Notes: generated by a model not told the origin, from the letters alone. DNA of 64,000 bases from Escherichia coli (GCF_022846255.1 NZ_AP025682.1); one strand, 5' to 3'. Positions 33,068-39,312 are shown, counted from the first letter of the stretch. Numbers and translations are program-made.

Positions 33068-33110
33068 ACGCACAGAATGTGATGCCAGCACTCTGTGCGT
33101 CTGCTTTTAT
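33068..33110 (+). terminator. stem-loop terminator after eamA; left edge of accessory island
   Basis: 9-bp stem ACGCACAGA/TCTGTGCGT followed by CTGCTTTTAT. Confidence 0.55.
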
Positions 33111-33805
33111 CGCGGGAAAAAGTACTTTACCTGGAACTCGAAAATATTGCTGTAAAGTAACGAATAATCCAGCGGAATAGAGTTACTATCCACAGCCTGG
33201 GTCTGAATTTTAAGTATGGGATCCCGTGGGCTGATCCGTAAAATACTGGCGATTTCTGGGGTAGGAAAAGTCGGGGAGAAAGTTTCAAAGGTGCCAATGA
33301 TTTTGATCCCGCATTCGTTCTCAATATACGAAAATTTGGATTTTTGCATATGCGATACGGTTAAATCAGGAAAACGTGCCACTGACATCCACGTTTCTTC
33401 TAATTGTGCTGCATTATCCTCAATGAATCGCAGTCTCTTTATGTAATAAACCTGCTCACCAGTCACTAAATTCAGCTCAGTCGCAATAGTAGGAGAAGCA
33501 TCCTGCACTTCAAATTTCATAATCTGACTTCCTGCCTCTTTGCCGCTTTTATGTGCAATTTCACTGAAACTGTTCATGTGATCAATGTGTGCAACAAAAT
33601 TCTTTTTTTGAATGTATGTTCCTGAACCATGCTTTCTGTGAATAATTCCTTCGCCTTCCAGCAGGGATAATGCCTTACGCAGGGTATTACGCGAAACATT
33701 ATAACGAACAGCGAGTTCCGCTTCTGACGGCAACAAATCACCAACATGCCATGAATTGCCATTGATCTCGGATTTAAGTAAGCGGGCAATCTTTTGAAAA
33801 ATCAC
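33107..33805 (-). CDS. GntR/HutC-family transcriptional regulator (HTH plus UTRA effector domain)
   Basis: 232 aa, GTG start; N-terminus IFQKIARLLKSEINGNSWHVGDLLPSEAELAVRYNVSRNTLRKAL is a typical GntR HTH; divergent from PTS operon. Confidence 0.8.
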   Translation of the reverse strand: MIFQKIARLLKSEINGNSWHVGDLLPSEAELAVRYNVSRNTLRKALSLLEGEGIIHRKHGSGTYIQKKNFVAHIDHMNSFSEIAHKSGKEAGSQIMKFEVQDASPTIATELNLVTGEQVYYIKRLRFIEDNAAQLEETWMSVARFPDLTVSHMQKSKFSYIENECGIKIIGTFETFSPTFPTPEIASILRISPRDPILKIQTQAVDSNSIPLDYSLLYSNIFEFQVKYFFPR

Positions 33806-34003
33806 TTTTGCACCTTTTAAGAGCCATTGAAAACAAGGAGTTGAGACCTGATTAGTTTATCGTATGGCCGAGTCGTTTAATTATCACCCTGTTGTTGAAC
33901 AACTTTATTGCTGTATTACTGTGATCAATGTACCAGGACGTGTAGCTACTGTGGGATATGATATTTACACAATGTAGTCTGTTATATACCAGTAAGGAAA
34001 AAT

Positions 34004-34315
34004 ATGAAAAAGATATTGTTAGTTTGCGCTGCGGGCATGTCAACCAGTATGCTGGTTAAACGTATGATTGATCATGCTACCGCTATTTCACTTGAAGTTA
34101 ATATTTCCGCATTGGCGATTGCAGAGGCTAAAGGGAAAATTAAAAATAACGAAGTTGACGTTGTTTTACTTGGTCCGCAAGTTCGCTTTCAGAAACCAGA
34201 GATTGAAGCCGTTGCACAGGGGAAAATGCCTGTAGCCGTTATCGAGATGAAAGACTATGGCACAATGAACGGACAGGCAGTTCTTGAATTTGCGATGAAA
34301 CTACTGCAAGAGTAA
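34004..34315 (+). CDS. PTS EIIB, lactose/cellobiose family
   Basis: 103 aa, MKKILLVCAAGMSTSM with the phosphorylatable Cys; AAGGAAA Shine-Dalgarno. Confidence 0.85.
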   Translation: MKKILLVCAAGMSTSMLVKRMIDHATAISLEVNISALAIAEAKGKIKNNEVDVVLLGPQVRFQKPEIEAVAQGKMPVAVIEMKDYGTMNGQAVLEFAMKLLQE

Positions 34316-34429
34316 GAATCTAATATTATTAAACTATTACCTGAACTAACTTTTCACACATCATAAAATGGATATGGCATACATGCTTTATTGGGATGTA
34401 TAAATATCCAGGACAACAGGTATAAAAAA

Positions 34430-36091: not shown

Positions 36092-36145
36092 TTTTTTCTC
36101 CAGTGCGATATCTGGAGGAAATTACTACACTCTTAAGGATAAGTC

Positions 36146-37824
36146 ATGAATATAAAGACGCTTAACGTCAGCCTTTTGTCTATTTCTATTATTACAGCAT
36201 TGTTTCCGTTGAACGCGATGGCAACAAAATTAACCATAGAGCAGCGCCTTGAATTGCTTGAAAATGAATTGTCACAAAATAAACAAGAGCTGAAAGCAAC
36301 ACAGAATGAACTGGGAGTATATAAATTCCGACTTTCGACATTACAAAAAAGCATCACAGAAAATAAATATCAATCGGCCTCGCTTGCCGAAATATCAGCG
36401 ACATCTCCCGCTGCTGATAACATCAAAAATGAAAACGGTGAACAGAACTCGTCTGCCGCAGCACATACTATAAATGGATCGCAGCAAATTGCCGTTATTG
36501 AAAGTAAAGGCGATAAAACCACTATCGAAAGCGTGACCCTGAAAGATATCAGTAAATATATAAAGGATGATATTGGATTCAGCTATCAGGGGTACTTCCG
36601 CTCAGGCTGGGGCACCGGTAATCACGGCTCACCACAAACTTATGCAGCGGGTTCTCTGGGACGTTTTGGTAACGAGATGAGTGGTTGGTTTGACCTGACC
36701 TGACCTTAAATCAGCGTGTTTATAATCAGGACGGTAGAACGGCAAATGCGGTCGTTACCTATGATGGAAACGTAGGTCAGCAGTATAACGATGCCTGGTT
36801 TGGTGACAGTGCCAATGAAAATATCATGCAGTTCAGTGATATTTATCTGACAACGCGAGGTTTTTTACCCTTCGCACGAGAGGCAGAATTCTGGGTCGGC
36901 AAACATAAACTCCCGCAATATGAGATCCAAATGCTGGACTGGAAAACCTTAACCACGGATGTTGCCGCGGGTGTGGGGATTGAAAACTGGGCGCTTGGTG
37001 TAGGGCTGTTTGATATGTCCTTAAGCCGAGATGATGTCGATGTTTACTCTCGTGATTTTACGCGTACCAGTCAGATGAATACCAATTCTGTGGATGTTCG
37101 TTATCGCAATATCCCGTTATGGGATGATGCGACGTTGTCATTAATGGCTAAATATTCCGCACCTAATAAAACGGATCAACAACAAGATAATGAAAATGAC
37201 GACAGTTATTTTGAAATGAAAGATAGCTGGATGCTGACTTCTGTTTTACGGCAAAACTTGCAACGCGATACGTTTAATGAATTTACGTTACAGGTTGCCA
37301 ATAATTCCTATGCCAGCAGTTTTGCCAGTTTCTCAGATGCCAGTAATACGATGGCGCATGGTCGCTATTACTATGGTGACCATACCAATGGGATCGCCTG
37401 GCGTTTAATCTCTCAGGGCGAGATGTATCTGACTGACAATATTATTATGGCTAACGCGCTTGTCTATTCTCATGGCGAAGATGTTTATAGTTATGAAAGT
37501 GGCGCTCATAGTGATTTTGACAGTATTCGCACCGTAATAAGACCGGCCTGGATCTGGAATACATGGAATCAGACGGGGCTTGAATTAGGCTGGTTTAAGC
37601 AACAGAACAAAACTCAGCAGGGGGTAACGCTAAATGAATCGGCTTATAAAACGACACTCTGGCATGCATTGAAAGTGGGTGAAAGTATTTTAGGTTCACG
37701 ACCAGAAATTCGCTTCTACGGGACGTATATCAATATTCTGGATAACGAATTATCGAATTTTAAGTTTAATGAGAACAGCAAAGACGAGTTTATGGCCGGC
37801 ATCCAGGCGGAAGTCTGGTGGTAA
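36146..37824 (+). pseudogene. LamB/ScrY/BglH-family carbohydrate porin, frameshifted
   Basis: Two consecutive track ORFs (36146..36703 and 36826..37824) in frames differing by +1; first has signal peptide and coiled-coil N-terminal extension typical of ScrY/BglH; removing one TGACC unit at 36691-36705 restores one 557-codon frame with no stops. Confidence 0.75.
36691..36705 (+). repeat. (TGACC)x3 tandem pentanucleotide repeat causing the porin frameshift
   Basis: tgacctgacctgacc read directly; third unit creates in-frame TGA at 36701-36703. Confidence 0.7.
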
Positions 37825-37847
37825 TCTATTTAGTTAAGGAGTTGTGT

Positions 37848-39287
37848 ATGTCAGGATTTAAAGAAGATTTTTTATGGGGCGGTGCGGTAGCCGCACATCA
37901 ATTGGAAGGTGGCTGGAATGAAGGAGGAAAAGGCATCAGTATCGCTGATGTAATGACTGCTGGCGCTCACGGGGTGCCGCGTGAAGTGACAGAAGGCGTT
38001 ATCGACGGACTTAATTATCCCAATCATGAAGCAATTGATTTTTATCATCGCTATAAAACAGATATTCAGTTATTTGCCGGGATGGGATTCAAATGCTTTC
38101 GAACTTCCATTGCCTGGACACGAATCTTTCCGCAAGGTGACGAACAGGAGCCGAATGAAGAGGGTTTACAATTTTATGATGATCTCTTCGATGAATGCCT
38201 GAAGCAGGGAATGGAACCTGTGGTGACGCTTTCGCATTTTGAGATGCCTTATCATCTGGTGACAAAATATGGTGGCTGGCGAAACCGTAAACTGATCGAC
38301 TTTTTTATCCACTTCGCATCAACGGTCTTCACGCGCTATAAAGAAAAAGTAAAGTACTGGATGACGTTTAACGAAATCAATAATCAGGTGAATTTCAGCG
38401 AAAGCCTGTGTCCATTTACTAATTCCGGTATCTTGTATTCGCCAGAGGAAGATCTCAATGAGCGCGAACAAATAATGTACCAGGCGGTACATTATGAGTT
38501 AGTTGCCAGTGCCCTGGCGGTACAGACTGGAAAACTGATCAATCCTGAATTTAATATCGGCTGTATGATTGCTATGTGCCCCATCTATCCTCTGACGTGT
38601 GCACCCAACGATATGATGATGGCCACGAAAGCGATGCATCGTCGTTACTGGTTTACTGATGTTCATGCTCGTGGATATTATCCGCAACATATGCTGAATT
38701 ACTTTGCAAGGAAAGGATTCAACCTCGATATCACACCAGATGATAACGCGATTCTTGCCAGAGGTTGTGTCGACTTTATCGGCTTTAGCTACTACATGTC
38801 TTTTACGACGCAATTTTCGCCAGATAATCCGCAACTGGATTATGTTGAACCACGAGATTTGGTCAGCAACCCTTATATCGATACATCCGAATGGGGATGG
38901 CAAATTGATCCGGCAGGGCTACGTTATTCACTCAACTGGTTCTGGGATCATTTCCAATTGCCGCTGTTTATTGTCGAAAATGGATTTGGTGCGGTTGACC
39001 AGAGACAAGCTGACGGCACGGTGAACGATCACTATCGCATTGATTACTTTTCCTCCCATATTCGGGAAATGAAAAAAGCCGTAGTTGAAGATGGTGTTGA
39101 CTTAATTGGCTACACCCCGTGGGGTTGCATTGACCTGGTTTCTGCCGGAACAGGAGAAATGAAAAAACGCTACGGAATGATTTATGTCGATAAAGACAAC
39201 GAAGGGAAGGGAACGCTGGAACGGATACGTAAAGCATCGTTTTACTGGTATCGGGATCTCATCGCCAACAATGGCGAAAATATATGA
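37848..39287 (+). CDS. GH1 6-phospho-beta-glucosidase (BglA/AscB-like)
   Basis: 479 aa from [22 protein letters not shown]; TFNEIN acid/base and VENGFG nucleophile motifs; TAAGGAG Shine-Dalgarno. Confidence 0.88.
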
Positions 39288-39312
39288 GACTTCAGGAAGA
39301 TATTACGGAAAT

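Follow-up and report, generated by a model that had tools for sequence, protein, structure and literature searches.

In a 64,000-nucleotide stretch of Escherichia coli DNA (GCF_022846255.1, NZ_AP025682.1; the whole stretch is referred to as the window), a block of six genes lies between the core genes eamA and marB. We identify this block as the known chromosomal bgc locus of E. coli, in which bgcR is transcribed divergently from bgcE-bgcF-bgcI-bgcH-bgcA. Based on the gene architecture, on secondary descriptions of bgc and on the link to strain CFT073, we assign this identification a probability of roughly 0.92. The locus is not new, as it was genetically characterised in 2009 and is routinely annotated. 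An earlier reading of the same stretch (the original prediction) had described it as an accessory island inserted between eamA and marB and encoding a beta-glucoside-type phosphotransferase system (PTS) different from the known chb, bgl and asc systems. The comparisons below correct this picture on two main points: E. coli possesses four beta-glucoside systems and not three, and the locus is not a recent island.

Identity of the block with the bgc system

Alignment and megablast against K-12 delimited the segment absent from that strain to window positions 33053–39341, where 6289 bp replace 38 bp of the K-12 chromosome (1620210–1620247). The last position of K-12 homology is 33052 and the restart is 39342, at the marB stop codon, the entire marB–eamA intergenic gap in K-12 amounting to only 30 bp. 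The gene content and coordinates of the original prediction held within about 50 bp, and its family assignments were confirmed by NCBIfam and Pfam profiles (Table 1).

The regulator BgcR combines an N-terminal GntR helix-turn-helix domain (Pfam, 3.1e-19) with a C-terminal UTRA domain (7.4e-30), as found for the HutC subfamily of the GntR family. The PTS is of the lactose/cellobiose (Lac) type. Its permease BgcF scored 335 bits against TIGR00410, well above the cutoff of 236 bits, and its IIB and IIA components are separate proteins, with Cys8 of BgcE lying in the motif LLVCAAGMSTS and BgcI carrying the His motif IHAQDHLM. These two motifs are taken to be the phosphorylation sites. The family matches of BgcE (1.8e-24) and BgcI (4e-29) both remained under the curated NCBIfam cutoffs. 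For BgcA, the match to NF007154 reached 1035 bits (cutoff 624 bits), and the protein shows the features of a GH1 6-phospho-beta-glucosidase, namely the NEI motif at 175 with the acid/base Glu176, the ENG motif with the nucleophile Glu377, and the phosphate-binding loop. Its closest PDB entry was SmBgl of S. mutans (3pn8/4f66), matched over the full length with 807 bits, followed by E. coli BglA (2xhy) with 678 bits; the residue roles in SmBgl, which was crystallised with 6'-P-salicin, are given in PMC3605045.

The five operon genes are separated by gaps of 114, 27, 54 and 23 bp in the order bgcE-F-I-H-A. The bgcE–bgcF spacer (34316–34429) is very AT-rich and, at 114 bp, unusually long for an otherwise tightly packed operon, and neither an RNA family nor a terminator was detected within it. 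Besides the six genes, no open reading frame (ORF) of the block yielded a family match.

With BgcH presumed to be the porin of the bgc operon, the window matches bgc in its five-gene set of IIB, IIC, IIA, porin and phospho-beta-glucosidase, in the divergent GntR-type bgcR adjoining this operon, and in the presence of the locus in uropathogenic and septicemic (B2) E. coli, as represented by CFT073 and Nissle 1917, together with its absence from K-12. PMC3585215, citing Neelakanta et al. 2009, describes BgcR as a GntR-type positive regulator and bgc as a five-gene operon; it speaks only of '5 genes' in total and names the PTS subunits BgcE, BgcF and BgcI and the phospho-beta-glucosidase BgcA among them. 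The same article lists cellobiose, arbutin and salicin as bgc substrates, in place of the unknown substrate of the original prediction. According to the literature, bgc is transcribed weakly or is cryptic, BgcR acts as its activator, and salicin, arbutin and cellobiose are used in the laboratory by promoter-up mutants only, at low temperature. The link to CFT073 comes from its marB–eamA interval, which encodes six proteins whose RefSeq accessions coincide with those of Nissle 1917. For CFT073, PMC2831201 reports a six-gene "PTS system, cellobiose specific" set (c1955–c1960) that is not flagged as part of a genomic island and that occurs in UTI89, HS, SMS-3-5 and several B1 strains, being absent from K-12, O157:H7, 536, F11 and Shigella. 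In PMC4488073, the beta-glucoside operons of E. coli are counted as four, "chb, asc, bgl, and bgc".

Of the other three systems, chb (chbBCARFG) of K-12 is similar to the block in having separate IIB, IIC and IIA proteins of the same PTS family, and BgcF, BgcE and BgcI also matched the chitobiose IIC, IIB and IIA models, all under the cutoffs. The chb operon encodes the AraC-type regulator ChbR, the GH4 hydrolase ChbF and the deacetylase ChbG, and it has no porin, whereas the block has a GntR/HutC regulator, a GH1 hydrolase and a porin gene. Identity with chb was rejected on the family profiles, as the block lacks an AraC-type ChbR, a GH4 ChbF and ChbG. The bgl operon (bglGFBH) resembles the block in being a cryptic system for aryl-beta-glucosides that pairs a GH1 phospho-beta-glucosidase with BglH, a porin of the LamB family. 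The operon relies on the fused glucose-family IIBCA protein BglF and on the antiterminator BglG with its RAT/terminator RNA elements. In contrast, the PTS of the block is a three-part Lac-family system with a DNA-binding regulator, and no RNA element was detected in the block. Identity with bgl or asc was thereby rejected, since the permease is of the Lac family and distributed over three proteins, the regulator is of the GntR type and not BglG or the LacI-type AscG, and no Rfam element is present. In PMC2646131, bgl is described as AT-rich and horizontally acquired, a further point in common with the block. The distinction from chb, bgl and asc drawn in the original prediction therefore stands with respect to regulator, hydrolase and permease, but the novelty attached to it does not, the block being the fourth known system, bgc.

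We also considered whether the block could be an undescribed beta-glucoside-type PTS island with unknown substrate, distinct from bgc as well as from the other three systems. Some observations do weigh against our identification and lend themselves to this alternative. The databases name the six proteins generically, and the exact-sequence cluster look-up returned no protein called 'Bgc'. The equation of bgc with c1955–c1960 is in part presumed. The proposed identity draws on gene content, secondary descriptions and the CFT073 link and not on an alignment with the published bgc sequence of strain i484. Against an additional system, however, the published description of bgc fits the block gene for gene, the CFT073 block is the only six-gene cellobiose-type PTS set in that part of the genome, and the median of one copy per genome gives no sign of a second similar locus. 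An undescribed system is hence highly improbable, and the bgc identity is retained in the following.

Composition, distribution and history of the locus

The GC content of the block is 42.6%, compared with 49.6% for the remainder of the window, and none of 452 equal-sized windows outside the block was as low (minimum 46.3%). The same tendency is found at third codon positions (GC3), with values of 0.39–0.45 for the block genes versus 0.55–0.58 for eamA, ydeE, marC and ydeA. The AT-richness, originally judged by eye, is thus borne out by calculation. No integrase or transposase was found among the block ORFs and no direct repeats spanning the junctions were found at the block ends, as had been noted before; moreover, no tRNA or other Rfam RNA was found within the block, and no remnants of the K-12 hairpin were found at its ends. 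Hence, the block displays the atypical composition and variable distribution of a mobile genomic island, but not the hallmarks of one, i.e. integrase or transposase, tRNA or att site, and flanking direct repeats.

A survey of 5426 complete E. coli genomes detected the block or part of it in 2563 (47%) and at least 80% of the block in 2493 (46%), almost always on the chromosome and as a single copy. Five block copies reside on plasmid-labelled records. The contiguous K-12-type empty junction was present in 2484 genomes, whereas about 449 had neither the full block nor this contiguous junction, including 378 without any match to the 211-bp junction probe. The eamA–marB site is thus a two-allele polymorphism at a ratio of roughly 50:50. 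The accessory nature of the block stated in the original prediction is confirmed by these counts. K-12 is empty at this position, the block is not carried by a majority of E. coli, and its GC content is distinct from that of the flanks. The title of Neelakanta, Sankar & Schnetz 2009 (Appl Environ Microbiol 75:2284) refers to bgc as prevalent in septicemic and uropathogenic strains. Compared with this title, the genomes reveal a spread beyond such strains, for instance to E. coli W and O103:H2, and bgc appears as a stable, ancient presence/absence polymorphism that is widespread beyond the strains originally named.

The age of the block was assessed by its divergence. Identity to E. coli W (phylogroup B1) amounts to 97.44% for the block and to 97.63% and 97.32% for its flanks. 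As block and flanks are equally diverged, the block is an old resident in the lineage and not a recent insertion. In agreement with this, E. albertii carries the whole operon, and a single colinear alignment (window 33162–40930, 82.8%) extends from it through marB, marA and marR, with identities of 79–84% for the bgc genes, 83% for marB, 83.5% for ydeA and 88–90% for marA and marR. A deletion was directly observed in E. coli 2017.17.01CC (L003 580–3105), where an independent event has eliminated everything from bgcR to most of bgcA, joining the first 333 bp of a truncated eamA to the terminal ~105 bp of bgcA. We examined this deletion as a possible common scar of bgc-negative strains and rejected it as a one-off, the common empty allele being the K-12-type junction. 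Near the deletion, this strain carries an IS1A copy in the mgtS–ydeE interval.

These data bear directly on the island reading of the original prediction, according to which the empty K-12 state would be ancestral and the block would have entered individual lineages by recent horizontal transfer. Such a scenario would be in line with the low GC and GC3 of the block, its patchy distribution, the occurrence of the cassette at other sites in Citrobacter and Salmonella, and a porin scan of contigs that recovered no Escherichia species other than E. albertii. Two further points weaken the case for loss over gain: the E. albertii contig ends inside bgcR, leaving the eamA side unseen, and a clean deletion starting at either end of the block would not yield the 38-bp filler of K-12. 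Recent transfer is nonetheless very unlikely, given that the block is as diverged from E. coli W as its flanks, that E. albertii has the same bgcA–marB junction with the block and with marB and ydeA at the identities given above, that integrase, transposase, tRNA and flanking repeats are all lacking, and that a deletion is directly seen in one strain. The variability within E. coli consequently seems better explained by loss than by recent insertion. In the history that we favour, an ancient horizontal acquisition would have brought in a low-GC, Firmicute-like PTS/GH1/GntR module, to which a porin was added. The cassette would have resided between eamA and marB before the split of E. coli and E. 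albertii, and would later have been lost in about half of the E. coli lineages, including K-12.

A Firmicute-type origin fits the low GC content of the block, and the catabolic enzyme BgcA also has a Firmicute-like appearance, with SmBgl as its best PDB match. Related modules are found in S. pneumoniae (bgu), B. subtilis (gmu, with the regulator GmuR) and S. mutans (SmBgl), which share with the block a GntR-type regulator, a Lac-family PTS and a GH1 enzyme. These Gram-positive modules are devoid of a porin; a gene for an outer-membrane porin is an acquisition of the enterobacterial cassette. The regulators also differ: BguR of S. pneumoniae, described in PMC3585215 as highly similar to BgcR, acts as a repressor, while activation is reported for BgcR.

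Outside Escherichia, the identical six-gene order was found in Citrobacter sp. On2M, flanked by tktB and nudK, and in Salmonella diarizonae, flanked by nfsB and an esterase gene, so that one cassette occupies three chromosomal sites in three genera without mobility genes. In every genus checked, it is more AT-rich than its host. Among the loci compared, E. albertii, Citrobacter sp. On2M, S. diarizonae and Erwinia psidii alone have the genes in the E. coli order. A rearranged operon is seen in Kluyvera, Raoultella, Cedecea, Enterobacter, Buttiauxella and Ewingella: the GH1 gene either lies upstream of bgcR in inverted orientation or could not be located within 10 kb, and in several loci of these genera the IIA gene was not detected. 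BgcH-like porins with 49–59% identity also occur in Erwinia, Pectobacterium, Winslowiella and Klebsiella at positions not adjoining bgc-like PTS genes, indicating that this porin family pairs with other sugar systems too.

Porin lesion and regulation of the operon

In one respect the locus of the window differs from bgc as otherwise found: its bgcH is a pseudogene owing to a third copy of a TGACC unit. The intact Nissle ortholog matched the Pfam families LamB (5.5e-80) and Sugarporin_N (4e-7), which places bgcH among the LamB/ScrY-type porins; a PDB sequence search with BgcH gave no match at E <= 0.001. In the window, the reading frame is not intact. The repeat context reads TTTGACCTGACCTGACCTTAA, with three TGACC units, and the resulting 5-bp gain creates an in-frame TGA at 36701–36703, which ends BgcH after 185 of its 557 residues, some 40 residues beyond the start of the barrel domain. 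The gene is thereby split into two ORFs (36146–36703 and 36826–37824), in keeping with a hint in the original prediction that the porin might not be intact. The downstream ORF lacks a signal sequence and cannot make a porin. The remaining five bgc genes are intact, and beyond the repeat the block differs from Nissle by nine substitutions and one 1-bp intergenic indel.

A total of 2515 genomes matched the interval 36593–36793, and none did so with more than 97.5% identity, which corresponds exactly to the 5-bp gap. The lesion is consequently either strain-specific or an assembly error. The latter, with an intact porin in the real strain, gains some weight from the absence of (TGACC)x3 in all 2515 other genomes carrying the locus and from the position of the insertion in a short tandem repeat, a context prone to indel errors. 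However, the gain of a whole 5-bp unit is atypical of homopolymer-type errors, and elsewhere in the block the differences from Nissle are ordinary single-nucleotide polymorphisms, apart from the one indel. We regard an error as unlikely. If the lesion is genuine, bgcH would have been inactivated by a 5-bp slippage frameshift that spared the PTS genes, bgcA and bgcR, and the strain-specific pseudogene could serve as a lineage marker. The premature stop may possibly be polar on bgcA. Small beta-glucosides can also enter the cell via general porins, and the system might for this reason still work in this strain.

In a strain with an intact porin, beta-glucosides such as cellobiose, arbutin and salicin would cross the outer membrane via BgcH. 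BgcE (IIB), BgcF (IIC) and BgcI (IIA) would then mediate their uptake and phosphorylation at O6, and BgcA would cleave the phosphorylated beta-glucosides to glucose-6-phosphate and the aglycone or glucose. It is conceivable, although doubtful, that the natural substrates are other than these laboratory compounds, for example plant or gut beta-linked oligosaccharides such as glucomannan products. The cassette would then stem from a low-GC donor and have been equipped with its own porin, its near 50:50 polymorphism at a fixed position beside marRAB being held by niche-dependent selection and the porin loss in this strain representing early decay. Glucomannan breakdown products have been proposed as substrates of the Firmicute gmu/bgu systems. 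In a weaker variant of this idea, the TGACC repeat would act as a slippage switch for the porin.

For the control of the operon, we footprinted 21 orthologous bgcR–bgcE intergenic regions from ~10 genera. The region of the window contains a CRP-like site at 33920–33935 (TGTGATCAATGTACCA), whose TGTGA (33920–33924) is invariant in all 21 regions and lies within the conserved ACTGTGATC. A -10-like TATGAT is located at 33957–33962, 29.5 bp downstream of the centre of the CRP-like site (33927.5), an arrangement that would provide bgcE with the geometry of a class II CRP-dependent promoter. Upstream, a GTTCA element (33875–33879; GTTTA in the window) shows at least 80% conservation and, together with a TGAAC partner at 33896–33900, makes up an inverted repeat. 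Located ~40 bp upstream of the centre of the CRP-like site, this GTTTA/TGAAC repeat is a candidate for BgcR binding. Expression of bgc is reportedly CRP-dependent, and the suggested promoter layout would agree with this as well as with the published positive control by BgcR. Two scans weigh against the layout. The CRP pattern was not enriched in the window, with 27 matches versus 28.6 expected, and the promoter scan of the window was not significant, with 15 sites versus 16.6 expected. As the CRP consensus is not enriched, it is only the cross-genus conservation that speaks for the CRP site. The conserved CRP half-site and the candidate BgcR operator are minor additions to the description of the locus.

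The original prediction had termed the regulator a HutC-type repressor. BgcR could indeed act like most HutC-family proteins, with a sugar-phosphate effector freeing the operator and thereby inducing the operon; its GntR plus UTRA architecture, its top NCBIfam matches to repressors such as PhnF, TreR and HutC, and the repressor function of the related S. pneumoniae BguR (PMC3585215) would all be compatible with this mode of action. The passage of the same article on bgc, citing Neelakanta et al. 2009, nevertheless reports BgcR as a positive regulator, in contradiction to the earlier designation. Furthermore, the candidate operator would be placed upstream of the CRP site and not over the -10 element, a position suited to an activator. 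Repression by BgcR is therefore unlikely, and activation is the mode of control that we prefer.

Junctions and neighbouring observations

The coordinates of the locus and its flanking elements are collected in Table 1. The left junction falls within the final three codons of eamA, so that EamA ends in KVRG* in the presence of the block and in KVGS* in the empty allele of K-12; eamA itself is 98.3% identical to its counterpart in E. coli W. Both ends of the block are marked by hairpins unlike the single hairpin of the K-12 junction. Strand folding of the left hairpin (33065–33103) yielded -17.4 kcal/mol for the plus and -23.3 kcal/mol for the minus strand (z -3.1 and -4.8), and this element is likely to be a bidirectional terminator. 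The right hairpin (39312–39339) yielded -22.6 and -22.3 kcal/mol (z -4.6 and -4.9). The polymorphism at this site thus alters both the C-terminus of EamA and the terminator that it shares with marB. A terminator scan returned 5 sites versus 6.0 expected, all on the minus strand, and missed both end hairpins.

Table 1 Features of the bgc locus and its flanks in the window.
Feature	Position	Strand	Basis
eamA (O-acetylserine/cysteine exporter), left flanking core gene	32163..33062	+	Orthologous Nissle and CFT073 annotation
Hairpin between convergent eamA and bgcR, then U-run on the plus strand	33065..33103		Inverted repeat I6 and strand folding
bgcR, GntR/HutC-family regulator, 232 aa, divergent from the operon	33107..33805	-	Pfam and NCBIfam
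bgcR–bgcE regulatory region	33806..34003		Sequence and cross-genus alignment
bgcE, PTS EIIB, lactose/cellobiose family, 103 aa	34004..34315	+	NCBIfam TIGR00853 (1.8e-24)
bgcF, PTS EIIC permease, lactose/cellobiose family, 440 aa	34430..35752	+	NCBIfam TIGR00410
bgcI, PTS EIIA, lactose/cellobiose family, 103 aa	35780..36091	+	NCBIfam NF007768 (3e-30), TIGR00823 (4e-29)
bgcH, sugar porin (Sugarporin_N and LamB barrel), pseudogene here	36146..37824	+	Pfam on intact Nissle ortholog
(TGACC)x3 repeat in bgcH	36691..36705	+	(TGACC)x2 in Nissle and every other genome with the locus
bgcA, GH1 6-phospho-beta-glucosidase, 479 aa, intact	37848..39287	+	NCBIfam NF007154
Hairpin with perfect 12-bp stem between convergent bgcA and marB	39312..39339		Strand folding
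marB, last gene of marRAB, right flanking core gene	39344..39562	-	Orthologous-region annotation

Some differences from other strains were observed elsewhere in the window. On the left side, K-12 homology begins only at 29105 (window about 28500–29105), and a gap of ~1 kb is seen in comparison with E. coli W. Only remnants of 80–90 bp are left of ydeI and ydeJ in Nissle and CFT073, whose regions are nearly identical to that of the window. On the right side, yneK is deleted, as window positions 42692–42700 retain 9 bp in place of 1012 bp of this gene in K-12 (1615848–1616859); the Nissle and CFT073 annotation likewise shows a yneK remnant of only ~100 bp. The gene mgtT, at about 30450–30560 on the minus strand of the window, is annotated as frameshifted in Nissle 1917 (L001 1354–1459) and CFT073 (L037 14894–14999). 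Finally, the plus strand at 30352–30565 matched the Rfam family STnc560, an Hfq-binding small RNA, with 281.9 bits; this known core small RNA lies in the dgcZ–mgtS interval, at the place of the annotated mgrR of K-12, and has no connection with the bgc locus.

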